Source: Seison nebaliae (Eukaryota). Taken from it: DNA of 64,000 nucleotides. The stretch is from assembly GCA_023231475.1 (NCBI GenBank), contig JALJEE010001852.1:1-64000 (forward strand), given 5' to 3'. A program made the translations under genes and the position numbers. Under the pieces are notes generated by a model. That model ran no database searches, had not been told where the DNA came from, and saw nothing but the letters and a program-made list of their open reading frames with translations. Below are positions 4,426-50,000 of this stretch, one piece after another; within the stretch, counting starts at the first letter, position 1, and each line of letters opens with the position of its first letter.

Positions 4426-4585
4426 TTGGGATTTGCGCGTACGCAATCCCGGTCTATCATAAATTATGCGCCCGAGTACTTCACTTGAAGCATCGCGAAC
4501 ATTACCTCATCGAAGTGCAATGAATGAAGCTCCGCTCGGGAGATTCTCATCCATGATCGAGAAGTCTTCGGCGCCAGGTTAGTAT
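4426..4585 (-). ncRNA. U1: U1 spliceosomal snRNA with variant 5' arm (AUACUAACCUGG)
   Basis: The reverse complement shows the 5' arm ATACTAACCTGG, stem-loop I with loop GATCATGGAT, the loop II U1A site ATTGCACTTC, the Sm site ATAATTTATG and terminal hairpin GGGATTGCGTACGCGCAAATCCC. Length is about 160 nt and the element order is that of U1. Confidence 0.95.
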
Positions 4586-6417
4586 GAATTGTTAGGGATT
4601 GGTCATCCGGTTTTATCAAATTTGTCCTGCTTAATGTTATAGATATTGGACGAGAAGAATTTTCCTTCGAATTGTGCGAGTTAAAGGAGAGAATGAATGA
4701 GAGAGAGATTTTGGAGAGTCGATAGAAATTGGAGAAAACTTCAAAATGTTAGCTGATTTTCATATTAACAAGATTGATAAGAATACGTAATAAATGGTGT
4801 TGGTAACTGGAATGAGTTTGATTCTTGTCAATGACATCATCAATTGTGGAGAGAAGAGGGATGGTTTCATTTTAATTGGAAGGGAACGAATATTTCTCGT
4901 AATTGAAGAGAGTTATTTTCTTCTTTCATGAATGCTTGTAATGTTAGGATAAGTTGCTCAATTCGATTCTGCATTTCAATTAATATGAATAATTGTCTAA
5001 TAGAAGTTTAATTTTCATAATTCATTTATTCATGTTGGAAGTGTTTGGTTGGGAAGATGATGATTGGAAGGAGTAAAAGAAAATTTGTTGATTCTCTCAC
5101 ATTTCATCGAGGAATGTTTGATTATCCGAAATCGACTAGAAATTGTATTTATTGAAGGTCATTCTCCACTTAATTATGATAGTCATCCTGGAAGGAAATG
5201 ACGGAGCTGATGAAATTTCATATTCCTTTTTCGTTTTTTTTTTCGTCACTGCCTCCCAGTTAACGAGTGAGGGAGGAGAGATGAATGGATGGATGGATGT
5301 GAAACGACTTGCATCTTATTATTACAAGCAATCGACGAATATGTAAAATTCACATGGAAATACATGTGAATGTCCCTTCTTGGAAAGGAAGTAGAAATCA
5401 AGGAAGAATTCCTGCAAAATATCATCGAATTGTTTAATGGAAATTGAATATGGAAATTACATATAGATTGCTTCTACTCTTTACATTCGGCGGGATGGTG
5501 TGCTGTTGCTCATTGTCACTTCATTCTCATTGCATATCCAACTGGTAAGACATGTGGTGATGGAAGCTGCAGGCGAGATAAGAAATATTATTCCTTTTTC
5601 CAAATCGAATATCTTTTCCTCTCCTCCCCAAAATAAGAAGTATGAACAACTTCTTATAAATACTCTCTCATCTACTACTCAATTTACATTTTTTTTATAG
5701 TTTTATCTCATTTCTAAACAATGAGTAAAAATGGAAAATTTATTTCTTATCTATTTCTTCTTTTGCTTCCGATAGATTTAACTTTCTCTTCTTTTGTCAC
5801 CTACCACCTCCACCAATTCTACCATCAACAAACTTTTTCGATCCCATCTGGAAATAATCGCTGGAAGAAGATTCGTCCTCGTCGCATTTGGTGGGCCGAA
5901 ATACCTTGATATTATCGTCTTTCTCTCTCTCTCTCTCTCAATACATTTGTCTACTCAGAACGGATATTTGACAATCAATAGAAGAAGGTTATACTTTTGC
6001 GCCTCATAAATGAACCGCCTAATGGATCGTTTTCATCTATTTCCATTTCTTATTCATCGTGGCGGCTATTCGGAGTTGTCTGTCAGTGCACATTCCTGCT
6101 GAATTTTCACATTACTTTCATGTAATATGAAGTAAGGATAATTCTCTATTGATTTGGGAAGGATAATTTATTTAAATTCTTATTCTCGATACTTTACAGG
6201 ATGATTGTTGAAAAAATATTTTTTTAATTTTTTTTCGATTTTTCTAAGTATTCCTTATTTGAGGTTTTCGAGATTTGTGGATATAGGGAAATGAGAGTTG
6301 CACCTTCGCTATTAGGAAGAAATGGGATTAGAAAAGAAATTTGATTTGTTGAAGATTAAGAATTAATCGAAAATTTTCTTCTCTTCTCTTTCTTTTATGT
6401 TCAATTTGGTATTCGCC

Positions 6418-11221: not shown

Positions 11222-11587
11222 AAATACTTTTTTTTATTGTTTCAAGAAAGAAAACTTTTTCAAAAATTTTAGTCAATATTTATTATGAATTTTATTTCCT
11301 TACCAATTTGTATCATCTATTCATTCTCTTATTGAAAAGAAATTGTAAAATAATAAAATTTTCGTCAACATTCAATCTGATACGATATCCATCAGAAATA
11401 TTATAAATATTCTTTATTAGATTGACAATAATCGAAGAAGAAATTTATTAAGAAGAAATTACCATTAAAATAAAGAAGAATAAAAAGATGAGTTAAATTG
11501 TTAAGAAATGAAGGAATTGTTTAAAATAAGATAATCAATAAATTTTATGAAATAATAGGGCGACTGTTAGTCTTCCCTCCACCCCAA

Positions 11588-13545: not shown

Positions 13546-16500
13546 TTATTCATTTCCCACATTGAGCTGCGCTCGCACTTTCTTCAACGTAGTCGAACAT
13601 CGAAGTTTCATTAATTTGGAAGAAGGAGAATCAGTTTCACCTAATCGTTTCACTGGAATTGTTCCTTCTTCTTCTACAAACCGAACGAGAGTTCCATTGA
13701 GGAATTTCTTACACGCTTCCAAATTGAGACAGTTCTGTTAAGAAAAGAAATATAATTAGAAAATAAAAATGAAATAAGAGAACTGTATAATTGGCGAGGA
13801 CGCATTGGATGAAGGAGAGACAAGTTTGAATTTCAGAGACATCATCAAGGATTCGTAGATGTTCCCAAGTGATGGAGATTAATTGATTAAATGTATCGTT
13901 CGAAATCAATTGTTGATAAGATGACGATTTGAAGAAGTTCTGTATTTTCGTTTGTTCTTCCAATTTGACGTTTTTGAAATCGGTGAAATTGAATGAATTA
14001 ATTCCATTCATCTTCAATTCATGAAGTGCAAGGAAAATGCGCGATAACGATGCAACCAATGTGTCATGATATAAGATATCGAAATCATTCATCTTCATTT
14101 CGATAATGGAACTATTACCTTTCAATTCATTGATACATAATTCCATAAATGAATGGAACGACGATTCCTTCCCTTCCAATGATAAAATACTCAAATAATG
14201 AAAAGGCGAAGCAGAGAAAAGAGTGGAGATAGCATAAATGAAATTATTTCTTATCTCATCCGAATAACTCGTGAATTTCGATATTTCAACCAACGATTGA
14301 ACGAGATGAAATAGACGTGAATAAATTAGATGGAAATAAGATAAAAAATTCTTCTGTTGTGTCACATAGAAAGAGAGAACATTCGGTTTGGAGACACTTC
14401 CATCATTCGGTGCTAAATCTTGAATGAGCGTGCAATTGATAAGCATGGATAAGTAGCCGAGTGTATGACTCAAATCTTCGTCCGTATTTTCAATCGGTTT
14501 CGTCGACAATTTGGTGGTTTTGGTAGTTGGGATGAATTGCTTCTCGAAATGTGTAAGGACAATATCATAAATTCGAAATAATAAAACTCGACGTAAATCA
14601 TTCCAGGAATCAAATTCGTCTTTCGGTTGTATTTGATGTGGTTGTGGACGATTATTATTAATTGATGATTTATTCTTCTTTCTAACGTTTTGCGTATTTT
14701 GAATTCGGTTTTTCTTTCGCTGCGAATTCGTCAACTTCTTATTCTTCTGTTGTAATTCATGATAATTTTGCAACGGTTTCAATTCCTCCATTTTTCCATA
14801 GAACTCATGACGATGGAAATGGGGTGAGAGTGTGGCATAATAAAGATAATCGATAATCGATGGGAATAATTCGAGAGTTGATTGAATGATCTTTGAATTC
14901 TTTGCAGTTTTTTGTGAAGATGATGATTTCTTTTGAATGATCTTCTCACAATAATCCACCAATTTGACGAGAGTATTATGAGTAATGATGAGAGTTGAAC
15001 CTTTCTCATTGAATAATTGAAATTTATTTTTATTGTAAAATGACAATAATTTCGTCTTCTTCTCCAACATATCGAATTCATGAATTTGATGAATGTTCGA
15101 TACTTCGTCCATAACATTTATGATGGCTCTCAATGTTTCCGAATAGACGTCATCGTCCATCATTTGTTCACCGAATAATTTCTTCTCATCTTCCAACATA
15201 TCATTCTCCATATCACTCTCGTCAATAATATCGAGTAATCGATGGACGAAACCGTCGATGGAAATAAATCTTTTCTCATCATCAACGTCATCGATATCAT
15301 CCACATCATCTCCATTCTCATCCATCTTCTCATCATTCTTCTTCGATAATTCACTCAAACTGTTATACAATTTAACTGAATTGACCAATTTGTTTTCGAG
15401 AGATCTTTCTTCCGTTTTTCCATCAAAACGGAGAAATTCGATAAGTTTGATCAGACTGAAATTGGAGAATTTAATATCTCGAAATAATCGTCGATCATCA
15501 TCCACATATTTAATAATGATCAATGATAAATGGTAATCGATTGATGTGGCGATAGATGTGAGAGATGTTAGAGAAGTAGAAATAACATCATCCACCGGAT
15601 AATCGAGAAAATCGTGCAACGTCAACATGAGTTTTTGAATGAATAATGCTTTCGTATAGAGATGGAATAAATTCGATTTCTCATCATTTTCATTCGACCA
15701 TTCTCTCGGAATTTTTATGGTGATGTTGAGACGAGCGAGAGTAAAATCATTCAATTTGAATGGAAGAACGTCGTTATTGAAGAGAGATATAGCTGGTTGC
15801 ATTTGAACATCATTCCTGAATAACGACGCAGTAATTGAAGAGAATAAGATGTTGAGTGATCTCATACATGACGATTTGAGATCGATGGTACTATTAAGAA
15901 TATCACCACCTTCTAATTCGTCGTCACTATCATCATCGATCTCACTTTCGTCATCATCCTCGTTAACACTCTCATCAATCGATTCATCTCCTTTTATCAT
16001 CTGATTCTCCAACTTCTCCAACATACTCTCGTCCATTCCCATATCTTCATTCGTCGTTAACGATCGAACAATGTAATGAAGAAGTGTAAAGTACATTGGA
16101 TGCGGACAGAATGTCCCAACACTACTAAGCGCTGATGAGAGGAATGTATATCTGTTAATTATTTACAAATTGTTATTGTTATTGTTATTGTTTATATGGT
16201 AATTTTATTAGGTATTCCAGATTCCATTAGAAACAGGTTGATATGTTTCCATACCATCCATTGGATTTCATTCCATAAAAATGAAAGAAAGAAAAGAAAG
16301 AAAGAAAGATCATTAAATTTTGAACAAATAAATCATTTATCAAGAGGAGAAGCCTCTTCCTATCTCTCCTCCTCATCATCATCATCATCCTTCATTCCAA
16401 CCAACTAATCAACGAATCTTCACTCAATTTCTAGTCGACTAACTCTCTGTCTGAAGATCGATTGGATTTAATGAGGAATTGATGGTCATTTTCAGAGGAA

Positions 16501-19500
16501 GATATTCACCTCCTCATACAGAACGATAGGAGAAAGAAAATCGTTTGAGGTAAAACAGATTGAGTTATCTTTCAAGTTCATTCATTTTCTTCAGTCCTCC
16601 TTCCGATGAATGGAGGTCATTCCCATATCGGAAGGAGCAGAAGAAGAATGATTATTTTCAGTTAAGTCAGTTTGTCTGTCTATATTTTCTCCTTATTCTT
16701 GGTAATAAGAATAATATAAACATTGGATGATTCATCAAAACAATCAGTCAAATCAACCAGAAAATGAATAAGAGAAAAAAGGAAATTGTGGAAAAGAATT
16801 GTGTTGAAGAAAGTAGAAATATTTTCGTCTCCCCTCCATTCGGAGGGGGGGAAGATGCGAGTATAATCAATTTATATTTAATCAGGTTAAATGATAGAGA
16901 AGAAATGCTCATCATTGCGTTACATGAACAAATCATTCTTGTAATTTGGGGAGGAATTGAAATGGAAACAGAAATTATTTGAAGTCATTCTCTCTCACCT
17001 CCCACAGTTGAACGAAGAGAATGATTAATCAGTTTTGTCTTCTCTCCTTGATCGATTAATGAAGGATATGTATAAGGAGTGATGATGAATGTGAAATTAA
17101 TTAGCTAATTCTTATTCTAACTACGTTACTACTATTACTACCGGTTCTCTTACTCGTAAAAGCCGCATTCATCATTATTAGGGAAACATTCTTTCAATTA
17201 TTAACGATCTGATCTGACCCCGATACGTGGCAGTAACTTCTAATTAGGAAGAGGTCGACCAGAGAGATGTTGACTGCCACAGTCCTAAATAATATGGACA
17301 AGTTACGGCAATCTCTCCTCCCCTAAATCTTTGTCTTCCGCCCGAAAAATTGTACATCCGATCTACATTCCTCCTCTGACATATCACACAAATTGATGAA
17401 GGTTGTTCCCTATTGGTCGTTCCAAATTTCATCACCTTCACAATTCACTTCAACTGTTAATTTCCCATTTCGGGTTTTCCCATTTTTCCTTCTCTTCATA
17501 TCACCACACACACACACAAACACACACACACACACACACATTATCCCATCAAATGGAATCTCACCATCTGAAGATATTTAAATTTTTTCGTTCGATTAGA
17601 AAAAACCTGTAAGAGATAAAAGACGGAACATCTATCATAAGAGGAATTGAAAAAGAAATGAAAAGGAGAGTTGATGCAATTCGAATAATAAAATAAGAAT
17701 GAAGATTAATTTCCTAATTATCTTATTGATCACTATCGTTATTGGGAGATCGAAGAGTGACGAGTCCTATTTCGAAATTCAAAGAAGACGATTCATTCGA
17801 TTACGTCAATTACAAATGAAGAATTATGTAAAACAATTCAGTCTCGGCACAACATTTCAATCTAACATCTTTCCACTAAATCAAACAATAACAACAACAA
17901 CAACAACCCTACCAACAACAACAAGAGAATTATATAAAACTACAAAAATTTCCTTATCGAATAATACTGATTATTATTTCGATGGAGATTATTATGAACC
18001 AACACAATCTATTGGTCTTCTTCCAATTAAATCATCGACTAATATGTCAACGAATATGAAAAATTATTTCATTACAACAACAACCATTACTCCAACAACA
18101 ACAACAACAACAACAATCAGAACAACACTCACTAGAAATACAATAAAAGAGGAAGAACCGATGAATTTGGTTGTTAAATCCAATCGATATATTCAATATC
18201 ATCCAACTTACTTAACAACAACAACAACAACAACAACTGACCCGACAATTGCTGTTAATACAGTCTCGTCAATTTCTCCCGAGAAGAATGAGAGTCATCG
18301 TAAACAGATTCGAAGAAAATCGAGAAAAACTTTAAATATTTTAAAGTTATTAAAAACATTGTCGAAGAATCAAAGGAATAGATTGGTGAAATTGTGGAAT
18401 AAAAAGAAAACGTGGAAATCTAAATGGCAACCGAATGAGAAACATCGACGACAAAATACAAATAGTAATTTTAATATCGATCGAACCCATCAATTATCAT
18501 CAACTACCACAATAGGAATGAAAGAGGATTTAATTCCATCTACAATTCTCCCCACTACAACAATGACAACGATATCTACAACATCATCAGTAATGATAAA
18601 CAATTCGAATAATATGAGTAATCAATGTGTTTGTGAACGTGGACCACCAGGTCCGAAAGGTGAACCAGGTTTTTTTTTTAATTTTAAATTTTTCCATTAA
18701 AATTTTTCCTCTTTTAGGAATGATAATATTTAAACACGTTTACGTTGGATTTAATGATGTTGACGGGAAGAAACATATGGAACAGATTGACGAACCATCG
18801 ACAATTTCGAAAAAATATGAAAGAACAACTAGGAAACGTCATGAGAATAATCATAACGATGATAATGAGAAAATGATGGAAAAGTATGAACATCGTTTCT
18901 TATCGACAATTAAATCATATTTCATTCTCACACATCGTCTAACATTTCAATTGCAATCATTCCGTATACCGCAACCACTTGTCACTAAATTCCATAACGA
19001 ACGTCAAATTTTGACATTCAACAACATCATTTGGAATGATATGTCACTTTATAACCAATCGACGGGTCGACTGTCTATACCAGCCAATCTCTTTCAACAA
19101 ATTCAACGACATTTGCTCATTGTCAAATCGTCTTTATTCCCACATTCTCACTACTCACCTATTGGCGATCTGACGGCAGTTTTCCGTTTTCATCTAACAA
19201 TTTTATCTCAAACAAATCGTCGAGTTTGATCATTTCATTCAACATTTACATAAATTCACTCTTTCCAAAATTATAGGTGACGGTAGAAGTGTTCAAGAAT
19301 CGAGAATCACTTCATGTATTAAAGAATCATAATACGATCTATTCATCCTCCACTTCAACTTTGACGTTCGTAGAAGAATTAGATAGAAATAATTATGTTC
19401 TCTTCACTCTTTATTATCGTCTTTCTAATTATCTTTTGATTATCTATTTAGATTTGGTTAGCTCTTCATGGAGCATCCGAGAGTTACATAAGCGATGACA

Positions 19501-21870
19501 AATTGACATCATTCTCTGGTGATTTATTATATTGGAAATTGAATGGAGATATACTTTATCCGGAAGATCTCTTCCTCTCTCAATATCGTTCGATCGATGA
19601 AATTTGAAGAATTCTACTAACATTGATCCCCTTAAATCTGAATAATTTTCTGTTGATACGATTTCGATCTTATTATTCTCCTCTTTCTCACCATTATCTC
19701 GTAACTGATCGATCTTCTCCAACAATTGAAATGTATAAACGATAATTTCTTGTAAATTCTTTCCCGATAAATATCCATAATTCTTCTTCAATTTCTCATC
19801 AGAACAGATCTCATTCAAATATAATCGACTCTTCCAATTCTCGATGATTGCATAGAAAACGTCATACGATTTCATTTGGAGAAGATGTTTCGAATATTTC
19901 TCCGCATCGATATCAATATCAACTTCGGTGAATTCCGTTAAAGGAACGTACATGATCGGTGTAATCGTACTCAACAATCGTTCCACGTGATCGATATTGA
20001 TCAAATTCATCGAAGTCGAATTGAAGAAAATCGTTTCGATGGAATTAAATGCGAATATTTTATGTTTAATCTCCCCCGTCGGATGACGAATAAATTGACA
20101 TAATAATTCGATTGAATTATCGATGAGTATTGATGGAATACCTTTCAAATTAGTCATTAAAATATTGAAGAGATAAAATGATTTCCAAATGACATCATGT
20201 TTCTTCATAGTCTCCTCATCATTATCTTCATCGATATGATCTCCCATCATTCCAGTTTCAATACTTCCCATCTGATTAGTGATATGTCGACAGATCATCG
20301 GTAAACAAACTGAAGTCATTTCAACAAAATATGATTCTTGATAAACGTTATCCAAAATCTCTCCCAATAAAATAAAAGATGCGGATTGAATTAACGGATT
20401 ATCGATAATTGTTGATAATAATCCGAATCGAACGAATTGTGAATAAAAATATTTTCTGATCAATTCACCACCACATCGACATGTCGTCGCCATTGAGAGT
20501 AGAAGTGCCGTATGTGTCTCCGATGGTAAACGTTGTAACATTTCGATATGTTCCGGAAATTTTTCATTTTCTTTCACTTTCTTCAAAAACGAAAAAGTTT
20601 CATTCGGATCGTCTTCTTTTTCGAATGTCAATTGGAGGAAATTACCACTGGCCTTATTGAGAAGAGGAATGAAATTATCAAAAAATAATTTTGGAGTTAA
20701 ATTCTCTACAATCGCATCTAACAACATTCGTGCACTCATTCTAATTCCGATACTTTCATTCATATCACTCATAACACTGATGGATTTTGGTTCTTGTAAA
20801 TATTTGTCTGCTTCTGCCATCGACCATGGACAAGACATAATATGAAATGATGATTGAATTATACTACTCAATAATTGAGGATTGGTGGCGAGTTGTGGAA
20901 GACAATTATGAACTGTATCTGTTAGAAATTGAAGAGATCGTTCTCTTAAATGACTGTCACAAACAATCGCTACATTATCGATCAATTGACAGAGATGAAT
21001 GAGAATTTGTTGAAGGAAATGAAACAAATTTTTTCCATCTTCCAAAAATGAATCAAAATAATCGAAAATTCCATCAAATTTCATATCTGTTGTTCGATTA
21101 ATTTTATCGATGGATAAATATCTCGCTAAAGAATTGAGAGCTAATTTAATCGATACTTCAATCATCTCATCTGTTTCCTGATTCTTGTGATATGGAGCGA
21201 GACGTAAGAGAAGAATTGCCAGAGCTTTACAACTGGAATTAGTAAAAAGAAGTTCGAGTTGATTCGCTTCATTCAATTGAACGAAATGTAGAATTATTTT
21301 CATAAATCGATTCGTTTCTTGTTGATTCAAATATTCTCCATCTTTACTTATGAGAATAATGAGCATTTCTAATGAAACGAGATATGAATATTTATTGAAA
21401 TCATTTACTGGTATCATTACTTCTGCTCCTTGTACAATTCGTTCTAATTCTTTCGTAATCTTCTCTTTTAACTCATTCCAATGGAATTGTCGATTCGTTT
21501 TATTCTTTGATTTATTCTTCAGATTAATTATCCTTCCATAAATCCGTTCAATCCAACTACATAATTTCAATGCGATTTTATTGGGATAAATCGCATTATA
21601 TAGAAACATCAACGACTGTTCACCAATCAGTCTCAGATTGGGAGCGTTGTTTGATGCAAGTAACGTTGACGAATTACTGACGAGAAGTGTCGCCGCATAA
21701 GTTCGGACGTCTTCATGGATCTGCTGAGAAGCGATCGTTTCCATAAAAATTTCGAGAAGATTCTTCTCATTCTCTTCAATGAACTTCTTCAATTGAATTG
21801 TTCCTTCCTCCACTTTGGTTGGAGAAAGGAGATCTTGAATAATCAATACGAATTGCTCCTTCGGATCCAT
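13546..21870 (-). CDS. Importin-4-like HEAT-repeat karyopherin beta, 3 exons, with a 3470 nt first intron
   Basis: Importin-like N-terminus (EDVRTYAATLL). Joining 19622 to 16151 (phase 2) gives SDLRGSIYTFLSSALSSVG...IVRSLTTNE followed by an acidic loop, resembling importin-4. Second intron at 13735-13783. Confidence 0.7.
17699..19607 (+). CDS. Secreted C1q-domain protein with Thr-rich stalk and short collagen motif, nested in the importin intron
   Basis: Signal peptide, CVCERGPPGPKGEPG, and C1q-like motifs LTFNNI..N..YNQSTGRLSIP, VFRFHLTI, IWL and TSFSGDLL. Introns at 18669-18717, 19224-19276 and 19397-19451. Confidence 0.8.
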
Positions 21871-24164: not shown

Positions 24165-25230
24165 TAATAAATTCTTTGTCCATATCGCCTCTCTCATCAT
24201 CTTCGTACGCATCTTCCATCATCTCCTCAATCGACTATCATATCATTATCATTTAAAATTGACGAATGAGACTAACAAATTTCTCTTCTAATTCATTCGA
24301 TGTGTTTGATGGAATCATAAAATCTTCACTCATCTTATTCTCCTCCATTTGTTCATTGTTTGAGATTTGTTGTTGTTTGTGACAATTGACGTACAATTCT
24401 TTCACTGTAACGAACGAAAAATATTAAAATTTTGAAAGACAAAATAATTTTTCTTTTTTTTTTTCAAGAATTTTTTTTTGAAAAATTTCAAAAATTCTTC
24501 GAAGAATTTTTTTAAAAAATATATATTTCACATATGTTACATTAAATTGAAAGTTGAGTTGAGAAACAATATAACATTGAGTGATTGATGATGAACAGAT
24601 TCTTAATTCGACATCATTTCGTTCAACTTCGGATGATGGTCTCTCGTCGACGGAATCGGAATCCATCCCTTCCTCCGAGTCATTTTCTTCCGCATCTGAT
24701 TAATTAGATAATCGGAAAGTAAATGTGGGAGAGGAATAACCAGCGAAACAAGATAGTGTTGAGGTAAATGATTCTACATTATCTCTCTCTGATAAGATGG
24801 CATTCATATAAATACAAGGTATTTTTGGGAATTGTTCTAAATCAGACGACATAGCCAAAATACAAAGAGACTCGAAAGGAATGACAAATAAATTTTCCGA
24901 TTTCTTCCAAAGTTCTGGTAAGGGAACTTGTTCCGAACAATTCTTATTATTAATCAATTTGATGTGCACTCCACTATGAGAATGGTATGTGTGAAAGGGA
25001 AAGTAGAGAGAATGTGAAACTTGTCGAGAACATCGACGGAAACTTGTCCACACTCCAATTGACCGACGAAAAAATGAGGGAAAGTCTGGAACATTTTTGG
25101 GAATTTGTGTGAAAGAAATTTTCGAATATTGAAACTAAAAATTTGAATAATATCGAATGGATGGAATAAGAAGTAATTGATGGTGAATTGAATGTGGGAT
25201 AATGTAGATTAATATAACTGTAGGTGTCAT
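24157..25230 (-). CDS. pICln-like methylosome subunit / Sm-protein assembly chaperone, 6 exons
   Basis: Spliced product contains FVIPFESLCILAMSSDLEQFPKIPCIYM, an acidic tract, ELRICSSSITQLKELY..C..QQ and an acidic tail, matching the pICln layout. Five frame-consistent introns: 25086-25218, 24974-25020, 24696-24740, 24405-24575, 24235-24276. Confidence 0.65.
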
Positions 25231-25297
25231 GACGACAAGAATTGTAAATTGACACAAATTCATTTTTCATAAAGGAAATTTATTGTTTTCAGTTCTC

Positions 25298-27000
25298 ATG
25301 GTTAGTTGTCATCTATTCTATTGAATAATCATTCTATCTAATAATAATAATAATAATTCCATTTGATGATTAGGCAAAAAAAGATAAAAAGAAGAAAGGA
25401 AAAGGAGGTGGGAATCCGGGAATGGTGGATGGAATTCCTACTGCCGAAATGACGAAAGAACAATTGGAGGAGCATATTATTCGATTGCAGGAAGAGATTA
25501 ATCGTGAGAGAGAAGAACGAAATTATTTCCAATTGGAACGTGATAAGATCAATACTTTCTGGGAAATAACAAAACGACAATTAGAGGAGAAGAAAGTTGA
25601 ATTGAGAAATAAAGATAGAGAGATGGAAGATGTTGAGGAGCGTCACCAAGTCGAAATTAAAGTGTATAAACAGAAAGTCAAACATCTGTTGTATGAGCAT
25701 CAAAATAATTTGGCTGAAGTTAAAATGCAGAATTTGGTGGAGTTTAAAGAGAAGGAGAATTCTGATTTCCAGAACGAAGTGAACGACAGAAAAGCAATTC
25801 GTGATTTGAAACAGAAGTTGCATGAAGATCGAATATCGAATGAAGAAGTGATGAAATCGATGAAATTGAAACAACAAGAAGAACAAACTGCGCTAAGAAG
25901 TCGATTCGAACAACAAGTGAGTGAAATCGAAGAGAAATTCAATATGAAAATGAAAAATTTGCGAGAAGATCTCGAACTGCGAAGAAAGACTGATATTCAT
26001 GAGGTGGAGGAGAGGAAGAACCAACAGATTAATACATTGTTGAAGAATCATGAGAAAGCTTTCTCCGATATCAAGAATTATTATAATGATATTACTCTCA
26101 ACAATCTCGCTCTCATCAATACGTTGAAAGTGGGAACTTATTTTTATAATATTATAAACATTCTAATTTCGCTTTATAGGAGCAAGTGGAAGAGATGAAG
26201 AAGAAGGAGGAACGTCTCGAGAAGCAAATGCATGAAACTCAAATGGAGAATAAGAGATTAGTTGACCCTCTCAATAAGGCGAAAGATGAATTGACAGACA
26301 TGAGGAAGAAAGTAACTTGTTATGAGAAGGACAAACAATTACTTGCTTCAACACGAAATCGATTGAAATTGTTGACGAAAGAACATTCGAATCTTCAATG
26401 GGAATTAGAAGTTCTCACACAACGATATGATGCTGTTCGTTTTTTATTTTTCTTTCCAAAAAAAACAAGTTATTTTGTGTCAGTTGGAGAAAGAACGAGA
26501 TGCTTATTATAAGAATTTCACGGAAGCAATTCATGACGTTCAACAGAAAGCTGGATTGAAGAATTTGTTATTAGAAAAGAAATTGACAACAATCGGAGAA
26601 ATGTTGGAGAAGCGCAATGCTCAATTCAATGAAGTTTCTATTCAATTAATTCACTTTCAACTTATTCTCTTCTCAGGTTGTTGTCACAGCGAATCTTGAT
26701 CCAACAGCAATTGGTGTAGTCGGATCGAAATTAGACGAAGTGGTCGAAAAGAAGAATAATATCATCAAAGAACTTCAATTAGAATTGGCCAGAATTTGCA
26801 AAGTTTTCTCATCATTATTTTTATTATTTCTATTCTTTCTAATTCTTCTTCAATTTTAGTCATATAATGATCTTTTAAGAAGTTTCGATGCGAAGTTACA
26901 ACAAATGGGATTATCCTCTTCCGAACATGGATTCAAACCAATGGCAACAACAGTAATGGAAGGAAATCGTGTGGGAACCGCTCCAATGCCAATACAATAA
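25298..27000 (+). CDS. GAS8: Growth arrest-specific 8 / dynein regulatory complex subunit 4, 6 exons
   Basis: [38 protein letters not shown] and [16 protein letters not shown]. Introns: 25301-25373, 26130-26179, 26435-26483, 26634-26676, 26803-26859. Confidence 0.97.
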
Positions 27001-28176: not shown

Positions 28177-28779
28177 ATGAAATTGTTCAGTCTCCAATTG
28201 TATTATCGATCACCAACAACAAATGATGGATCGAGTAAATTGATTCGTGGATCTCATGAGCTCTCTTCATTCGGTTACTTCCAACGAACAACAGCGAAAG
28301 AACTTCTCGTGTTCACAGCGAAAGTAGCAATCGAACGAACAGAATTAGGAAATCGAGTAAGTGTGGAACAATCGCCTTATACTGGACACATTTATTGTCG
28401 TCCTGATGGATTATGTGGAGCAGCAGTTACAGATTCGGAATATTCAGAAAGAATTGCTCATACCATTATCTCATTGATTATGGAAGAATTCTCGAAAATA
28501 ATGCCACCATCAGAATGGCCATCACAAAATTTGACGGAATGGGAGAAAATGGACGAACTTTTAATGAAATATCAAGTACCGGATGAAGCTGATCCGTTAC
28601 TGAAAATGGAGAAGACTTTGGGTGAAACGAAGACCATCCTCCACAAAACCATTCAATCTTTATTGGATCGTGAAGAAAAGTTGGACGATCTGGTCGGTCG
28701 TTCCGAGCAACTGAGTGTACAATCCAAATTATTCTATACGACAGCCAGGAATACAAATAAATGTTGTAAAATGTTTTAA
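28177..28779 (+). CDS. YKT6: Synaptobrevin homolog YKT6 (longin R-SNARE), intronless
   Basis: LSSFGYFQR, EADPL, ETKTILHKTIQSLLDREEKLDDLV and a C-terminal CCKMF prenylation motif. Confidence 0.96.
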   Translation: MKLFSLQLYYRSPTTNDGSSKLIRGSHELSSFGYFQRTTAKELLVFTAKVAIERTELGNRVSVEQSPYTGHIYCRPDGLCGAAVTDSEYSERIAHTIISLIMEEFSKIMPPSEWPSQNLTEWEKMDELLMKYQVPDEADPLLKMEKTLGETKTILHKTIQSLLDREEKLDDLVGRSEQLSVQSKLFYTTARNTNKCCKMF

Positions 28780-32106: not shown

Positions 32107-33364
32107 ATGTTGATTAAAGAATAGTTACAATTTTCTTCTCCTTAAGAAATTTCATGAAATTTTTAATATTCTTTTATTTTACATCTTTCCACCCTTGTCC
32201 AGTCGCGTCATACTTCCATTGACTTTGGAAGAGTATCAGATCGGACAATTGTACTGCACGGCGGAAGCTAGTCGTGAAAATACTGGTGGTGGCGAAGGCA
32301 TTGTTGTGGAAAAGAATGAACCGTTTACTGATAAAAAGGATTTATTCGAAGGATATACTTCTGGTCAATATACTTACAAAATCTATAAAATGGAAAGGTT
32401 TCCTTCTTATCATACACATATACACACACATATATATATATATATATACACACACATACACACACACAAACACATTTTCATCTCTCGCTCTATTTAGTAA
32501 AGTTCCAGCATTTGTCAAAGTCTTCATTTCACCAGGACGTCTAGATATACATGAGGAAGCATGGAATGCCTATCCCTATTGTCGTACTGTGTTGAAAGTT
32601 CTTCTATTCTCCTCCTCTTATTCTCACTTCAACATCTCCTTCAAAAGAATCCCGGTTTCATGAAAGATGATTTCGAATTAAAAATTGAAACTCTTCACGT
32701 CCAAGATGGAGGCCTATTAGAAAACGTTCAATTTTCTCCCTTCTATTGCTCTTCATCTCCATTTGTAGGCACATCAATTGTCACCAGTTCTCTTAAAGAA
32801 GCGAGACGTGTCTACTATCGATATCTCAAGAGATCATATTCCCAAACATGTTCACTTCATTTTCCCATTTCCTCCAATTATATTCATTCGATATTGAAGG
32901 ATTATAAGGCGGACGAAGATCCGGGAAAATTCCAATCGACAGTTGTTAATCGAGGACCTCTCGGTCCCAATTGGATTGATGAATATCGTGCAATTGCTGG
33001 TACTTCAGCTGCAGAAGGCAAACCGTTAATGTGCGCATATAAACTGGTAACAGTCGAATTCAAAATGTTCGGATTTCAGAATCGCGTCGAGAAATATGTC
33101 ATTAATGTTTAAACGAAATTTTCTTTTTCTTCCTCCAATTGTCGTTGAAAAAAGGCTGAACAACGTCTCTTTACCACGTTCCATCGGAAAGTTTTCTGCA
33201 CCATTGACAAATGGCATGGGAAGACAATACAAGACATTAGAGAATTAGAAAATGAGACGAAGGCAGCACTGGAAACAGTTCGATTTGTATTCTCTCTTTC
33301 AAATTCACTTCTATCTTTTCAGACGTTGGATAAAGGAGAAAAGCGTGGAATGATCGTGGAATAA
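32107..33364 (+). CDS. Class I phosphatidylinositol transfer protein (PITPNA/B-like), 8 exons
   Basis: [50 protein letters not shown] and FHRKVFC. Seven introns: 32124-32202, 32398-32497, 32598-32647, 32726-32768, 32850-32899, 33107-33154, 33278-33322. Confidence 0.96.
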
Positions 33365-37399: not shown

Positions 37400-38812
37400 T
37401 GTTCAGTCATGTTTTAACAGATACCTTCCATAAATGTGGATTGTTCAGTGAGGAGAATAATGGAGAAGAAGAAACATTTCAAATTTCCTGTAGACTTGAC
37501 CCGAATTAGTATTATAAATAGTTTGAATAAATAGACAACTGATCGCCAAAATAATGATAAGTCCAAATTCATCCGTTCAATTCTCTCTCATCTAATTCCC
37601 TTTCATATTCCACTACTCACTCTGATTCTATTTCACAAAGAAGAACAATTACAAGAAGTAGAATTATCATTCACAACAATTCCAATATGAAATTTCCCTT
37701 AATTATTTTAACTAAATCTCCAACTAAAGGAAAGTTTTGTTGATAGAACGGAGAATTGACCGATTCACCATTCACACTCATCACACGAAAGAAATTCTTC
37801 TATTTCTTCAATTATTCCACTTACCGGAAGAATGTCTTTCCGACCATTATGAATCATGAAATATTCAATTAATTATATCATCAATCAATGGACAAATGAG
37901 TGACAATATGATAAAAAAGATGTGGATGATTACAAGAGAAGATAATGGAAATTCTCCAACTTTCTCTACTCATTTCATTCTCTCCATCGTCATCATTGAC
38001 ATGTGATGGAAGAAGATATGGAGATATACTGTCCGTTAAATGTGTGGAAGGGGCGGATATCTTCACATTTCTAATCACATATTGACCTGATTATCTTACC
38101 GTTTTCTTACTTCTTCTTCTCACCATCAACTTCACCATTCCCAAATGGTCGAGAGAAAGGAAAATAGTGGAAATTTCAAATAATCTCATTCATCGATTAA
38201 TCGATTTATTGAATAATTAGAATGATTCTCCCAGAACACGATTTACAGAAACTTTTAATCTTATAAATTATGTATTTCATTCTGTTCACTTCAATTCAAC
38301 GAATTCTCTATTTCTATTTCATCTGATACTATTAGTCTGATTAATCAAGAATTGATTAATTCATTCTGATCAATAACAAATTAGTTAGAGGAGACGGAGA
38401 GTAACGAATGAATAATCATTATTTGGGATGAAACGGTCGATAGTCACCGTGAGATTAGAAGTAGATGTTCATTTTTCATAAAATCTCGAACGAACTTTTT
38501 CATTTTCTCAATTTCTTTAGTAAATTTATGTTAGTTCCTTCTTCCCACCAAACCTGTACTTAGATACGATGATCATATCCACCGGAAAACTAGTAGCATC
38601 TTCAACAAACAATGAACGAAAGAAAATTGAGACATAACGTAAATAAAAGAAGAACCAGGAAAACATGTGGACGGTTAAATCGGAACGGAAACGCAATCGT
38701 CAACTATCTTCCTTCGTTCCAATCTCGCTCTCTTCATCGGAAGCAGTCAACACATATTTATTTTATGTTGACAATTTCCATGTTTATGAATCATCTCTCC
38801 TGAGTCTAGGTG

Positions 38813-39140
38813 ATTTGGTAGAAGGGACTATTTGGTAGACCGACAATTTGATAAACGGAGATTTGGTATATCGACCATTTGGTAGACGGGACTATTTGGT
38901 AAACCGACCATTTGGTAGACTGTATTAGGTAGAACCGTATTTTTAATGAGCATAATCCTTTTGAATGATCCAAAATTTTTGGAGCAATTTAAATGTGAAA
39001 TAAGAAAATATCTACATGTATTTCCCATACGGAGTCTACCAAATGGTCGGTCTACCAAATCTCCGTCTACCAAATTGTCAGTCTACCAAATTGTCGGTCT
39101 ACCAAATAGTCCCGTCTACCAAATGGTTCGTCTACCAAAT
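38813..39140. mobile_element. Foldback-like non-autonomous element: two inverted arrays of a 15-17 nt tandem unit
   Basis: Eight ATTTGGTAGAC-type units (38813-38940) and seven inverted GTCTACCAAAT units (39027-39140) flank a spacer of about 85 nt. The repeat is certain; the transposon identity is inferred. Confidence 0.6.
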
Positions 39141-40528
39141 GTCGTTTTCCCATCCCTCCTCTATCATAACAAATCCATCATCACATCTGATCACTATTCT
39201 GATAAAGACTTATCGAGTCATATCTCTATATTATCTCGAATAACATGTGAGAGAGAAGTGGTGGTGGTGATAGTAGTGGTGATGGTGGATAACAAAGAAC
39301 CAGAAAAGAACGAAGATAGATTGGAAGAGATATGTGGTGTGAAATATGGGATGATGTCGAGATTAATTGAATGGAAATTATTTAAGAATCGATAATAATT
39401 CATTGATGAATTAATTGAAAATTTCTTTTATCAGTAACTTTTCATTTATTTCATCAAAGATATGTGATAAATGTATTGACCGTTGACCGATTTCTTATAT
39501 ATGTTATTGTTACAAAATACAACTTCTTTCTCTCGATTCCCCCTACAACATTATGCAATTCTCTTCCTTTCTATTCAAAGTTTTCTCTCCTCTCTCGCGT
39601 GTGGTGGGGAAGTAAAATTTATTGTATAATCTCGCTAGTCTTATCTCTTATTGGTGGTGGTGGTGGTGGTAGTCAGTCGGTCTTCTAGTAATAATGTTTA
39701 TCATTTGTTCGACGGAACAGAAGAATAGTCAAATGGGATAAAAAGGTGGATGAAAGAAACGTAACGAAAGTTTGTGAAATTGCAGCGAAGGGAGAGACGA
39801 GGCAACCCATTCTCTCAAACAATGTTTTCTTTCAACTAAATCTTCGACAATAGAAGAAGGTGGGAGAGATATCTGAAGTCTTCTTCTACATATATATCGC
39901 TAGTCATTCATTTTTTTTCTCTCAAATCCATTCACTTATTTGTAGGTCGATCGTATAGAACGGACGGGAATTGTTGCGGGAATCAGTCGTTATGAGATGA
40001 ATCGATTTACCTTATTTCCATTCTCTTCGGCAGTAAACAAATAAACGGTTCAATTGAACGAACTGAATAATGAGAAAAGAACAGTAACGTAAAGAATAAA
40101 GTATTCGAATGAAAAGGTAAGAATGTCGAATTATTTAACTCCACGAAAATCAGATATTATTTACTGGATATTATCCAGTCAAAAAAAATCGAAGGATCCA
40201 AACACATTCTCCTTACACTTTATTCTAGTACTGAAACGACCATAAACTGAACAATTTAAACTAAATTCTCTTAAAGTTGATAATAGGGAGAAATGTCGTT
40301 TTGTTGAATAATTATTCATTTATTATCAATTATGTGGAAGGAAAAAGAAAAGTTAAATTTTTTAACAAATGTTAATTGTCTGATCTAAAATTTGGAATAT
40401 GATTTTCGTCATTCTTCGTTCACGATTCATCTTCAACTAATTCCAACCTTCCGCCAAGTTTTTCCTTTTACTTCCATATAGGAAATGTTGTCAGATGGAG
40501 AAAGGTCAATTCTCCAACATCGAGAAAT

Positions 40529-42001: not shown

Positions 42002-45000
42002 TCGACTCTAGAACTATAATTCCACATTATTCACCGTTGACATCATAATGACTCATAAATTGGAAATAATGTGAAGAAGTGTCTTCAAATTAATCATAAA
42101 TAGGATTTGTTAGGTATTTTATTTGTACATTCTTCGTCTTCCTTCGTCTTCTTTTTAATCCTTCATTAATTTCTTTAATTAATAGTCTTTCTTCTTCTAT
42201 CCGTTTTCTCGTCTATGTATATGGGATTAATAATGATATAAGCGATTGGTTAATTAGTATTCAAATGAAGGAAATTATGGAGGAAATTAAATTGATAGAA
42301 CCATCTCGTATAATTGATGATTTTAAATGAATGAACGTTTAATTAAGACGAGAAAAATTTTGATTTGGAATGGAATTTAAAAGAAAAATTTAATTAGTTT
42401 CCGTTCGCCTTGACGACAATAATAATTTATAAAATAATCATCGATAATATGATGAGTGGGTTACTTTAGAGAAATAAGTGCAAATAATAGTTAAATTGAT
42501 GACAGGAAATGATTATCCATTGGGAGAATGATCGGAAGAAGAAGGAGAGAAATATTAGATAAATCGAATGAAAAATATCAGAAACACAAAGAGAATTTCA
42601 TTCGATTGTCTTCGTCTAGAGAATGAAATAGAATTGCGCTTCCAGGAATAAGAACGACATTGGACGGATAGTTGCCGTCGAAATATATCCGGTAATATCA
42701 ATCGTTTCATTCACTGCCATATTCGTAGCTGTCAACAAGTCTATTATGATTGGAAAGTGTCAGGAGAATTTCATACAGAAGAAAACGGGAATGATCAATG
42801 AAAAAGTTTTGCGATAAAGGAACGATACGGAAAAAGTGGAATGATACATCGAAATTCGATATATTATTCACAAGAAAAAGAAGAAGAAGAATATTGATAA
42901 TTTCATCCTATTCATTCTTTCATTTATCCTAATAACTTCTATTCTTATCTCATTTGAAAATTTCTATTTCAACCAACACCACTTCATCTAATGAAGAATA
43001 ATAATCTTCTGAAGCTTCAAAGGAGATTCCCATTCCATATTAGCATATCTTATTATTATCTAATGTTTACTTTAAATAAAAGTCGGAGACAGTTCATGTA
43101 TCTATTGGTGTCATTTTTTTTAAACAGCCATCCATCTTTTGTTGATCAACACTCCCAAAAAAAAACAAGAACGTTTAATTTGTTCCATCCTTTTTTTTGT
43201 CGAATAGACTAACGTAATAAATTTGTCTTCATCAGCAATCAATGTTAAAATCGTGTTTAAAAAGAACTACGGAAAAAATAGGTAGAAAAACGGAAACTGA
43301 TTAGGGAGAATGGTGACGAATTGAAAGTGGCATTTGATGATATGTCCCATTGGTCTCCTACTATTTGTCCACATTGGATATACCGATTGATAGTTTTTTT
43401 CGATATACCGATGAGCATGTCAGGAAGACACGTGGAAGATTTAGAAGAAATTCTAAGAGAGACAGAGATCGTTGGTCACAAATCCATATTTATGTAGTTG
43501 TGGAGTTGATGGAAGGAAATGTAGAGAAATAAAGGAAGAAGGAATGCTTTTGAATAATTAACAGTCATGAAAGGGTTGGAATAATTGAGGAGTAATGTTG
43601 AATTGAGTGAATGAATGAGATAGATGATTGAAGTAAAGATGAAGAACTAAAAGATAATCGGACGAATATCGCCATGACCATTTTTAATTGATTATTAATT
43701 ATAATTATAAATATTCATGCTACTGATTGAAATACATGCAATTGTTATTCATATATGAACAACAAGTTACACAATCCGTATTGACAGCGAAAGAATAATA
43801 ATCCATCCATCAACAATTTCTTCAAATTCATCGTCAGATAGTTTATGAAATTCAAAGAAATTCTTCTCGTATTGTTGTACCTATATCTCCATGAATATTC
43901 TACAAGAATAACGTAATAATTAATCTTGTTGTGTGTTAATATCCCTTAATATCCTTCCAACATCTTGTCCATCTACCTCCCCTTCCAACAACATGAGATC
44001 ATATGGAAACATATAGAAATCTTTCCGAAACGAAGTTGAAATCAGAACGTCGAAAATAAGAGGAAATAATACTTTCTCTATCACGTAATCAACAGATTGA
44101 TGGATAGGTTAGTCTGATTATCTTTTCCGTTCGTACAAAATCCTCGGTTCAGATGTTACATATCGAACGAGTGCACTGGAGAATGTAATGTGATCAAAAT
44201 CATTCATAATTCCTCCAAAATTAATCTTATTATTTTGTGGTAGATTTTGTTTATTAATTCAATTAATTACTATTCTACTTCTCACCTTCCAATCTTTCGT
44301 ATAAACTTATTATAGACCATTCTACAACTAAATTAACTAAACAACAAATTAGTTGGAATAACTAACAATAACTTCCTATGCTCATTCTACAACTTTTCAT
44401 CCTCACACTTCACATAACTTTCACTCTTTTCAACAATTCTTCATTAAATTAAATAATGGTAAATTATGAAGAAAAAGAGATAATTTTAATAGTTCCAATA
44501 TAATTCTCGAGTGAGTTAGGAACATAAGAGGTCATGTTGAAATTTTTCGTCGACAGTTGGGTAATAATGGCGAGCAGATACTACTTTCAGACACTTTTGC
44601 ACTAGGAGTAGTGGTAGTGAAGTTAATTCGCAAATCGTGAACTTAAATTTTTTCTTGAAAAAATAAATTTATTGTGTTGAGTTCAACATTTAAATGAACT
44701 TCCGTAGGTTGTGCATAATTGAACTAGAACAATATTTGAAGCATCAATTGTCCTTAGTCCATCGCTAATCATTACTACCACGATCGCCTTGGTAAAAGGA
44801 AGCAATCCCAGACGTTTTTCTTTGCAGAAGAAATATGGCCAAAGGGAGCGTATCCATGATTTTTCGTTACCATTTTCCAACATTCTTTTTTTTTCAGCTT
44901 ATGCGAAAAGAAAAAAATCGGGGATAACTTCCTTTACCATATTTGCTTAGGAATGAGAAACGTCGGGAATAACTTCCTAGAATCACCCCCTGCATTATTA

Positions 45001-46347
45001 TATCGTTGAACTATTATCTGGTTCTCTCCTGGACGTTCTTGGAGAAATTTTTGAATTTCTTTTTTAGAAAAAATGTTAGTTCTTTTCTTTTGGTGCTCTT
45101 TCTCAAATGATTTTAATAATATGGTTCATATGATTATAATTGTTTAATATTTACATTTTAAATCTCATTAAAAAATTGGGAATTTAAAATGCTATAAATC
45201 TTGTAACATGTTGTTCCAACGAAATTCTTCGTTCAAAATATTGGATGAAAATTGACCTCTTCCAATTCTTTTTTCCTCATATATTCGATAAAATGAGTCC
45301 ATTCTGCTCCGCATGCATCGTTCTTTATCAATCTTGCTTCCAAAATATCTTGCACGTTTCTTTTCATCTTTGATAAATAAAGCGTTTTTTCAAAATTGTC
45401 TCGCAATTAAACAAAATAATAATCATAATTGTGTTGGTGTCGATTTGAAAAGAAAATAAGTTCTGAGGTTTATTAAGAATTTCTGACACGAGGATTTGGT
45501 AGTTGGTTTAGGGAGCGAAGTTCCATACTATGGTTCAGTCCATCGGATCAAACTCCTACTAAACAAACAGAAATAACTTTTAGTTTAAATTTTTTATTTT
45601 AATGGTTTGCTAAAAAACTACTATTATCGTGTTAGAAGAAACTTTATAAAACTTATATTCCTCGTGATAATTCCTACTGAAAAAATATTAAACTAGGTTT
45701 TTTTCGAATATGGTTCATCTTCAAGAAATCTTATTTCACAAATTTAGTAAACATTATCTTCTAATGTTTCCTTCCCTCTTCCACTTCTACGTGCAACAAA
45801 AAACCAATGCAAGTGTTGTCTGAAACATATAATCGAAATGTTTCCTTTGTCCGTTCGAAGGAAAAAGAATGAAATATAAGAGACTGCTGAAGAGTGATAA
45901 AGTGGAAATGTGCAATCAAGTTGGAAGCTCTTTGCATTTATGAGCAAATAATAAAAATATGAATGAAAAATGAGAAATTTGATAATTATTTATTCAATGA
46001 TTAGCCCTTCTCCCACAGTTATTGTAGGATGAAGACTTATCATATTAAATTTGGTGGGAATGAAGTGTTATGTGTAGAACAGAAGAGAGATAATATTGTC
46101 TTCAGATTTATACAAACAAAATGTGAAGTCTCTAATGATAAAGGGAGAAATGAATGTAGAAGTTTAGTGGAATATTTCTATAAAATCTTTATTCCCAAAT
46201 CAGCAAGAGAAAATATAATTTAAATAAATAAATAAATAGAATAAACTCGAAAAATATACACATGTACCGGTGTATACCGATATTTGAGGAAAAGTGTAAA
46301 TTAAATAAAAATTTCGAAAGAAAATTAAACTCGAGTGCTCATCCAAA

Positions 46348-47077: not shown

Positions 47078-50000
47078 TTATTGAGTCTGATATTTAGTGG
47101 TGGTTGGTGGGAGTGCATCACCTTCCATATCATTCACACAATGTTCGTCATCTTCACCGTTTTCAGGATTTGGAAGAATGTCTTCTTCCGGTATACTCTT
47201 ATCCAAATACGCGAAATATTTAAGATTAATGATAGAAAGTGCAGTGAATGATGACGGTATAGTGGCGGAGGAGGTGATTGACGAGGCGTTCGATGACGAA
47301 GTGTGGAAAGATTTTGGTTGATGTAATTGAAAGAGAAGTTGAATAATTTCGTAATTCACTTTTAAATTTTTCACGTCGATCTTCTCCGACAGATTCATCG
47401 CATCTAATAACGAGAGTTTGGACTGATGAAATGATCCGGTCATTTCGATGGTAATTGAAGTATTACCTTTCTCCTCACTCTTCACCAATTCGTAGAGTCG
47501 CCAAGTCTGTAAAAGAATGGCATAAACGGCGATAACGCAATTGATGAGTGAATTCGATTTGGATGATTGATTATGAATTAATTTATGAATATTAATTGAA
47601 TGATGATTCTTCTCATTCACTAATCGTTTTAATAAATTAATGATATAACATTCCGTTATATCGATCATTTCGATAATGGAAGAATTGTCTAATTGGTCGA
47701 AATTGATAAATGTTTCGATCATTTCGTTCAATTCGTTCAACTCATAACTGAATGTACATTCGAATTTGATATTGGATGATGATGATGAGAGAAATGAAAA
47801 ATTGAAATGAAGAAGTGGAAATGAACTAACTCATCCGACAACTGGTCGATATCGACGAGATATGATGGAAGTTGCTGTTGGATCAGACAATCGATACAGG
47901 AACAATTGACATTCGTTTGATACTTCGATTCAACATTTTCCGATGATGTCGACGATGTATTTGTAGTTGGTGATGATATGGACGGTTGAATATGATGATA
48001 ACGATGATGATGGTGATGATGATGGTTTGAACTATAAAATTTCTTTTTTAAAAATAAACTTTTCAAATAATTGTTGGCGCGAATAATATTCTTGTGACGT
48101 GACGATGTTGATTGTGATCGTTTGATGAGTTTAGATGAGGGAGATAATCGATCGTTAGAATATGCATCGAATGATGGTGAGAAATCCGTTCCGTTCAAAG
48201 TGAGTGTGAGAAGAATGAATCGATTATTCCATACGTAATAATTGACAGTGTTCAATGACATACGATCATCAATACGAATAGATTGATTGAATATCATCGT
48301 TCTCAATCGATTCCTCATTACGTCGTCATTATCGATGAGATATGATTGTCGATACATTGATCGTTTGATGGAATTGCGATGTGATCGTCGAAAAAATGAA
48401 GCAAAGGATTGTTTCGTCGAAAATTCATTAGAATTTTTCCCACTTCCATTCAATGACGAATGATCATCAATGGAATGATCATTGTCGAAAGTTGGCGAAT
48501 CAACAATTAATTCCATTTCCTGAATTCTCACCAGATCACTATTGATATGATGAATGATCCTCTCAACCGCCATATGAGAAATGATGGAGAGATCATGTTG
48601 TTGTTGCTGCTCTACTACATATTGTTGTTGACCGTAATTCGATTGAGTTTGTGAATGAAATGGTTCGATTTGAAATTGTTGTCTCGATTGTGTCGTATTT
48701 AATGGTTCGGTGGAGAGAATATCAGACATTTTCATCCATTCTGGTAAAATTTGCATGACATTCTGAAAATGTAAAAGAATATTATAATAAATTGATTTAT
48801 ATGAAAGAATACATTCATTCAATGTCTCCCAATCATTATCTAAAATATCGATCAATTCAATCATCAACAAATCATCTGATTTCACTCGAATATATGACGG
48901 ATATCCTAATTGTTGTTGTTGTTGTTTCGTCGTATGAATGAGGAAGAATTCCATTTGACTCTCACTCAATTTCACATTAGATGAATAATCGTCGAGGAGA
49001 TTAGTCGTATAATTATTTGAATTTTGAATAAGATATAATGGAAATTGAAGAACGAGAGAAAATAAATTATTGGGAATTAAATTCTGTTTGAGAAGATCGA
49101 GAGCTTTCGCTTTTGTTGGATGAAGACGATTCGTTCGATATAATTGCTCTTTCTCATTCGTTATCATTAGAAGACATTGATGTAATAGACGTGCCAAATG
49201 GAGAATGAATCGATAATATATGTCATAGAACAAATTAGCGATAATAAATCGTCCATAATAATTAATGGAATTATTAAAAATTGATTGTATCATCAATCGT
49301 CCACGACTAATCGAATCCATGTTCACTATACAAGAATTCATTTGACGTTCATTCATTCTCACCATCAGATAACCAAGACTTATATCTAATTGGCACCAAT
49401 TCGTGGATAAATAACTCATGACATTCCATTCACAATTTGACACATTCGAATCGCCAATAATTATTTTCAAATTTCTTTTACTTTTCTCGAATAAGTTGAG
49501 AAGATAATCGATCCAATTATCTCCCCACAAATCATCAGTCAATGTCTTATTCATCAATTCTTCTTTCTCATCATTCTCCTTCGACAATTCAATGATATTC
49601 TCTTTGATTGTCAATCGTTTCTCATTCTCATCATCAATCAACAAATTCTCACTTAACGATCGACCATTCTTTCCCAAATTTAAGAGGAATTCAATTTTAC
49701 ATCCATCCAATTCCGTCAATAGATAATAGAAAATCAATTTAACGAATCGTTTCAATTCCTCCAAATTCTCCATCGTCATCTTCTCTCCTTTCAACATCAT
49801 GGAAGCGAAATCATCATCTAATCGAAACAATTGACTAATGCAATTACAATTGAAGAGATCCCACATCTCAATTTGGAAATGGGAATTCAAAGTGATGACA
49901 TATCGACGATTAGGTAACTGATAATAATTGAGAATGGAACAACCGACTCCTGACGAGAAGATAACGGAATATGGAAATATTTCATGATTCATCTTCTCAC

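Follow-up and report, generated by a model that had tools for sequence, protein, structure and literature searches.

The donor-pairing sequence of U1 small nuclear RNA (snRNA) is almost invariant and is kept by most lineages with odd donors; complementary changes are reported for amoebozoans in the accessible part of one comparative source (10.1101/2022.06.08.495308). For Entamoeba it gives GUUUGU donors with a U1 reading ACAAAC, for Mastigamoeba a U1 ACGUAC and for Physarum a U1 ACAUAC, with Entamoeba and Mastigamoeba as cases of complementary U1 change and Physarum as an earlier, complex one; in the same portion, yeasts, Giardia, Trichomonas, Thecamonas and Micromonas have no complementary U1 change, and TIA-1/Nam8-type help for weak donors is described (10.1101/2022.06.08.495308). 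Here we describe a stretch of 64,000 nucleotides (nt) from the small rotifer Seison nebaliae (contig JALJEE010001852.1, positions 1 to 64,000; the window), which carries a U1 gene changed at nt 6, introns whose donors mostly begin with GTT, and a karyopherin-beta-like gene with a predicted intron of 3.47 kb. We consider it likely that U1 and the donors have co-evolved, with U1 A6 opposite donor +3 U and GUUAGU as the ideal donor, and jointly that the variant is a main working U1 and the karyopherin is spliced into a single protein of 1,601 amino acids (aa).

As far as the amoebozoan cases are described in the accessible text, Seison resembles Entamoeba, Mastigamoeba and Physarum in having an atypical donor and, where U1 pairs with it, a change that complements it, and Entamoeba donors also have U at +3. 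Two marks of the Entamoeba type are seen in the window: the atypical base is dominant (T at +3 in 34/37 modelled donors) and the U1 change is complementary (A6). The differences are that Seison is an animal, that a single change is involved (nt 6, donor +3), that positions +4 to +6 are degenerate rather than nearly universal, and that Seison has a second U1 gene whereas a single U1 candidate is described per Entamoeba species. Because the donor hexamer is not near-invariant, we treat Seison as a variant of the Entamoeba-type co-evolved system and not as a member of it. Variant U1 snRNAs of human (vU1) occur in multigene families, according to the accessible part of PMC10870369; these, like five metagenome contigs discussed below, indicate that a U1 of full length but altered at its 5' end can coexist with canonical U1. 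What sets Seison apart from the metagenome contigs is that host donors are seen to match the variant.

In the accessible text of the Seison genome paper (PMC8351084) 'snRNA' is absent and 'splic' occurs once, and the corresponding portions of PMC10125929, PMC11347168 and PMC12480690 hold nothing on Seison donors. A literature search of incomplete coverage found no animal case of complementary U1/donor change. Atypical donors matched by U1 are a kind known from amoebozoans (Entamoeba, Mastigamoeba), and the form proposed here, with U at donor +3 and a U1 to suit in an animal, is likely new. Such a case opens to test the way in which a single U1 base changes in step with donors in their thousands, with genomes at hand from related monogononts, bdelloids and acanthocephalans; the two Seison U1 genes could represent an intermediate or a finished state.

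The variant U1 gene

The U1 gene (Table 1) is the sole RNA found by Rfam in the window. It is full length, with four stem-loops intact in the Rfam alignment; loop II reads AUUGCAC, and stem-loop IV is preceded by an Sm site. Its 5' end reads ATACTAACCTG; nt 6 is A in place of U (U6-to-A), which breaks the canonical pairing sequence ACUUAC, with its U at both nt 5 and nt 6. U1 nt 6 faces donor position +3, where A6 calls for U, and from its letters the variant is predicted to read GUUAGU. The gene is identical in contigs of sequencing runs X1, X2 and X4, possibly this DNA's own source; the X1 contigs are continuous genomic sequence, none of the 15 joints seen (of 17) being a splice joint, and have no bearing on expression. 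A metagenome scan returned the same nt-6 variant in five eukaryote contigs (L001-L005), on which no genes were identified; all five are U1 by Rfam and form three distinct sequence groups.

Table 1. Features of the window discussed in the text; a slash marks the exon-intron boundary
Feature	Position	Strand	Basis or remark
Variant U1 snRNA gene	4426..4585	-	Rfam RF00003, 108 bits (gathering score 69.5), model 1-166
Karyopherin-beta-like (importin-4/5-like) coding exon 1, 749 codons + 2 nt	19622..21870	-	Open reading frame (ORF); NCBI SNEBB_008395
Karyopherin-like coding exon 2	13784..16151	-	ORF; NCBI SNEBB_008393 begins 37 codons inside
Last intron of 49 nt (GTTCTC donor, 13783-13735) and terminal exon	13546..13783	-	Junction in NCBI protein P0121
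Predicted host intron, GT-AG, 3,470 nt	16152..19621	-	Phase-2 join, open 1,601-aa frame
Predicted donor GTTAGTAG	19614..19621	-	7 contiguous pairs with U1 nt 2-8
Rival canonical donor G/GTGAGA	19684..19691	-	Frame-compatible with AG 16132; 60-nt intron of NCBI model
Nested collagen/C1q-like gene, 583 aa, four exons	17699..19607	+	Open spliced frame
C1q-like exons	17699-18668, 18718-19223, 19277-19396, 19452-19607	+	Three GTT introns
GAS8 intron 1, 73 nt, G/GTTAGT	25301..25373	+	Follows ATG-only coding exon
GAS8 introns 2-5 (GTGGGA, GTTCGT, GTTTCT, GTTTTC)	26130..26859	+	Gap-free joins against five homologues; exons tile Pfam GAS
PITP introns 1-7, all GTT donors	32124..33322	+	Exons 2-7 tile Pfam IP_trans
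WD40 gene intron, 83 nt, GTTAGT donor	47748..47830	-	Frame-compatible model
pICln-like gene intron, 42 nt, GTTAGT donor	24235..24276	-	Acceptor uncertain

Donors match the variant

All intron statistics refer to this window and to 37 coding introns, modelled from DNA in 14 genes; each is GT-AG and keeps its frame open. Doubtful introns, both those in the ORFs near 11490, 23290 and 42100-45400 and those at the pICln-like gene's 5' end, lie outside the set. Most of the introns (26/37) are 41-57 nt long. Donors and acceptors were scored with matrices trained on the window's 36 short introns, whose acceptors are TAG (20), CAG (9) or AAG (7) and whose branch motifs are weak.

T stands at +3 in 34/37 donors but in 39.5% of the window's 5,615 GTs (p 4e-11); among the short introns the share is 33/36, against 53% T in the downstream intron tract (p 7e-7), and T at +4 occurs in just 15/37. 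A blind rule, taking the nearest frame-compatible GT that gives at least 40 nt, yields +3 T in 33/36. It is also found in 10 of the 12 introns without an alternative GT and in 9 of the 10 pinned by homology (GAS8 introns 2-5, PITP introns 1-6); of the alternative GTs that were not chosen, 8 of 37 have it. Purines at +3 are rare (GT[AG] in 2/37 donors, 14.5 expected). The hexamer GTTAGT makes up 4 of the 34 GTT donors against 0.4 expected (p 7e-4), or 3 of 33 when the long intron is set aside (p 0.007); its window-wide count, 26 against 13.2 expected, places it only 18th among the 256 GT hexamers and does not enter the argument. Predicted pairing is better with the variant than with canonical U1 for 18 donors, equal for 17 and worse for 2.

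Several observations weigh against co-evolution with the variant as a main U1. Past +3 the match to U1 is weak (+4 A in 10, +5 G in 10, +6 T in 14 and -1 G in 6 of the 37 donors), and 17/37 donors show no favourable predicted duplex difference for the variant. In just 15/37 introns does every frame-compatible GT have T at +3, and 10/37 have a purine option. A second, divergent U1-like gene, recovered from contigs at 80% likeness, has 10 differences in 51 nt from window positions 4537-4587 (U1 nt 1-49); it appears in three of four runs (X1, X2 and X4, at most two studies; none from X6) at a depth equal to the variant's, and runs on into a hairpin with its own U1 loop II motif. Its nt 6 may be canonical. 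On contig L003, the variant U1 adjoins a canonical U1 within a U1/U2 cluster (1916-2068, 2384-2553), from which we judge that an nt-6 variant can be a minor paralogue. Because L003 pairs the variant with a canonical copy, the variant U1 alone proves little; the donor match is the argument. The preliminary description of this DNA took the GTTAGT donors to support the variant as the working U1, and the donors do match it; with a second U1 gene in existence, it is a candidate for that role.

The second gene, whose 5' end may be canonical, the neighbouring copies on L003 and the weakness of the donors outside +3 would all suit a different cause. In this reading the +3 U bias would be real but set by U6/U5/Prp8 or by U1-C/TIA-1-type proteins; the second gene, possibly canonical, would supply the main U1, and the variant would be a minor paralogue. 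A standard U1 is retained in several lineages whose donors are atypical, according to the accessible text of 10.1101/2022.06.08.495308. We regard this as unlikely, since the sole change in the U1 pairing region hits the one shifted donor position, and with the right base, and since the over-represented hexamer is the exact complement of the variant. A canonical U1 should moreover leave GTAAG/GTGAG donors, of which there are 0/37, a weak argument alone given a background expectation of 0.8. One might also imagine canonical U1 reading the GTT donors one base out of register, with +3 U paired to U1 A7. This is scarcely credible: we rejected such pairing for want of any GTT[AG]AG among the 34 GTT donors, of which 4 have G at +6, at background.

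Under co-evolution, A6 of U1 would pair with the +3 U of GUU donors, each side carrying the change, and the variant would be a main working U1. Typical introns of 41-57 nt would manage with about three pairs (GUU), helped by a U-rich tract further downstream and by definition across the intron; more demanding ones, namely the 3.47-kb host intron and the ATG-only exon of GAS8, would retain the full GUUAGU, and the karyopherin halves would be spliced into a single importin-4/5-like protein of 1,601 aa. Observed in the sequence are A at U1 nt 6, the excess of T at +3, the lack of GTAAG/GTGAG donors, and, for the long gap, its donor, its acceptor and the antisense gene nested in it. A more sweeping form, to which we give slightly less than an even chance, is that the major spliceosome of Seison has been re-coded: all U1 genes would read GUUAGU, some 90% of introns genome-wide would begin with GUU, GTRAG would be ignored even where frame-compatible, and full GUUAGU would be reserved for long or hard introns.

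Donor strength and intron length

The preliminary description proposed that, where donor strength matters most, the strong site is GTTAGT. In the window, length is not significantly related to pairing energy (rho -0.21, p 0.22), a further point on the debit side, and is related to the length of the contiguous-pair run (rho 0.37, p 0.026). GTTA begins 7 of the 11 introns longer than 60 nt and 3 of the 26 shorter ones (Fisher p 0.003); the cut-offs were picked post hoc, and p is 0.023 at 55 nt and 0.001 at 70 nt. For GTTAGT by itself the counts are 3/11 and 1/26 (p 0.07). The trend of stronger donors in longer introns is modest and favours the earlier proposal.

A probable long intron in a karyopherin-like gene

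On the minus strand, the first karyopherin-like exon ends ...GGATCAAT/GTTAGTAG (with AAT/ before the boundary) at 19621, and the acceptor reads TAACAG/ATATAC at 16152. This is the join put forward in the preliminary description, and its sites, matching phase 2, length of 3,470 nt and pairing of GTTAGTA with nt 2-8 of the variant U1 were all verified in the sequence. The interval has the GT-AG ends, matching phase and native-like donor of a U2-type intron, and the joined frame, with the 49-nt last intron also removed, stays open over 1,601 aa. The donor scores +9.3 with the short-intron matrix (leave-one-out range -1.4 to 14.9), and seven other GTs nearby score -15.3 to +0.6. Since no other donor tested at the exon end scores as high as 19621, and half of the gap is taken up by an antisense gene, we think it likely that the 19621/16152 intron is real.

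Other parts of that description needed qualification. Its longest perfect match is shared: GAS8 intron 1 also has seven contiguous pairs (U1 nt 3-9) with a better energy (-9.1 vs -7.0 kcal/mol for 19621), which makes it the strongest predicted match of the set, and intron 1 of the nested gene ties 19621 for total U1 pairs (8); what is unique to 19621 among the 37 donors is a purely intronic run from +1 to +7. That it is the only multi-kb intron holds among the modelled coding introns, a set to which introns of untranslated regions (UTRs) and unmodelled regions do not belong. The other GTTAGT donors named there (25301, 47830 and 24276) are all present, and the 42-nt length given for the intron at 24276 depends on its acceptor. 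The view that the strong donor is GTTAGT and that the variant U1 fits the donors finds its support in the window census; the long intron is one case, and weak evidence, because with GTTAGT in 4/37 donors the longest intron has it by chance in about 11%. The 16152-19621 interval is probably an ordinary host intron, its donor a supporting anecdote for the U1 reading.

Both halves of the gene are 100% identical to Seison nebaliae records (SNEBB_008395, SNEBB_008393). The Atlas feature matches of exon 1 all belong to the importin-beta family (IBN_N clusters, 0.95), with a recognition value of 2034, below the reliable level of 2300, and its low-confidence structural model (predicted local distance difference test, pLDDT, 41) has importin-5 as best PDB match (Foldseek E 1.7e-4). 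For the exon 2 model (pLDDT 34.5) the best fold match to a natural protein is a human importin-4 fragment, 5xah, at a weak Foldseek E of 0.049; the VIA alignment of this half covers mostly residues 544-790, with Z up to 8.8 on varied karyopherins, and is silent on the junction. In these models, the first half weakly resembles the N-terminal part of a karyopherin and the second its C-terminal part. In importin-4 an acidic loop spans 618-668 and the fragment 668-1081 has been crystallised, and the accessible text of the same source allows a general likeness to importin-4/5 (Kap123/Kap121): all-helical, with an importin-beta-like N terminus and an acidic stretch near the middle (10.1101/2022.04.08.487665). 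Shortly after its start, some 50-80 codons in, exon 2 has an acidic stretch that parallels the importin-4 loop, and this was counted for the join. The importin-4 layout as we take it to be fits the 19621/16152 join, as a lead and not as a test. The joined Seison protein differs from human importin-4 (1,081 aa) in its length of 1,601 aa and in having no significant sequence match, and the subfamily call is tentative.

Counting against the join, searches of protein, PDB and Pfam collections gave no significant sequence homologue outside Seison for either half, so that no tool aligns across the junction; the acceptors 16132 and 16152 score alike (4.8 vs 4.7); and NCBI annotates two genes with no 3,470-nt intron, SNEBB_008395 (730 aa) and SNEBB_008393 (815 aa). 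If the genes are indeed separate, the second would start from its own ATG, as ATGs do lie near its beginning, or by spliced-leader trans-splicing at AG 16152 or 16132, trans-splicing being present in rotifers; the first half can read through to a stop at 19444-19446. We consider separate genes rather improbable. The NCBI model ends its first gene with a purine-rich 60-nt intron from 19691, followed by a stop inside GTTAG itself, and the donor (-11.4) and acceptor (-10.1) of that intron score below those of all 36 short introns. Read-through would instead overlap an antisense coding exon, exon 4 of the nested gene, by about 160 nt on the opposite strand, and the halves look like N- and C-terminal parts of one karyopherin (all these matches being weak).

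A long intron might also run from 19691 to 16132, with a canonical G/GTGAGA donor, which would reverse the inference of the preliminary description. The pair is frame-compatible, the donor pairs at -8.1 with canonical U1 and is the one used by NCBI, and the acceptor has a pyrimidine tract with a branch-like motif 24 nt upstream. Purines make up 80% of the sequence after this donor, against 5-55% in the 36 short introns, its matrix score is the -11.4 given above, and 30 residues would be lost, among them the helices predicted (at low confidence) to end the first half and start the second; the spacing in importin-4 would also favour 19621/16152. We find this intron very unlikely. On the preferred join, 19621 to 16152, the split annotation suggests that gene prediction tuned to standard donors will go wrong in the Seison genome.

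The nested antisense gene

The antisense gene in the gap, overlooked in the preliminary description, encodes a secreted-type protein with a short collagen motif and occupies half of the 3,470 nt. Pfam C1q matches exon 2 weakly (E 0.018), and exon 4 aligns from its first residue with the last strands of adiponectin, also weakly (E 0.016). Multi-exon genes nested on the opposite strand of long host introns are a known arrangement. The present one is unusual only in its tight packing, its stop codon lying 14 nt from the host donor.

Other genes and introns

GAS8 shares about 70% protein identity with its counterparts in molluscs, cnidarians and vertebrates. An acceptor-like TTTTCAG (25286-25292, plus strand) stands five bases before its ATG and may belong to a 5' UTR intron or a trans-splice site. 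Exons 2-7 of the PITP gene cover IP_trans positions 7-64, 67-98, 100-124, 125-150, 152-207 and 211-245. The WD40 gene is presumably WDR48, Pfam giving just WD40; its donor at 47830 has two other frame-compatible GTs 9-12 nt upstream. The gene that we take to be pICln-like has no Pfam match for its exons. In the stretch 24276-24060 (minus strand), its last exon may start after AG 24121, for which the acidic exon offers no in-frame GT; either the 24276 intron would then run to this AG and measure 156 nt, or a 54-nt intron would begin near 24174 with a non-GT donor.

In the RNMT gene, intron 3 (1346, 1337 and 1328, minus strand) seems to use a GTTTTA donor although two GTGAGT sites would also keep the frame. 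From the Pfam positions, exon 3 should encode about 38 residues; the GTTTTA donor gives 32 and the upstream GTGAGT sites 29 and 26, which favours GTTTTA. High-scoring GTTAGT sites outside the gene models lie on the plus strand at 31902 (16.8), 45075 (10.1) and 38530 (7.2) and possibly mark UTR introns. Short degenerate tandem repeats occur at about 38800-39150, inside a long stretch without a clear ORF. Three genes are apparently intronless: a Longin/synaptobrevin gene (28177-28776), a dual-specificity phosphatase (46309-47067) and a DEAD_2 helicase (53004-55553).

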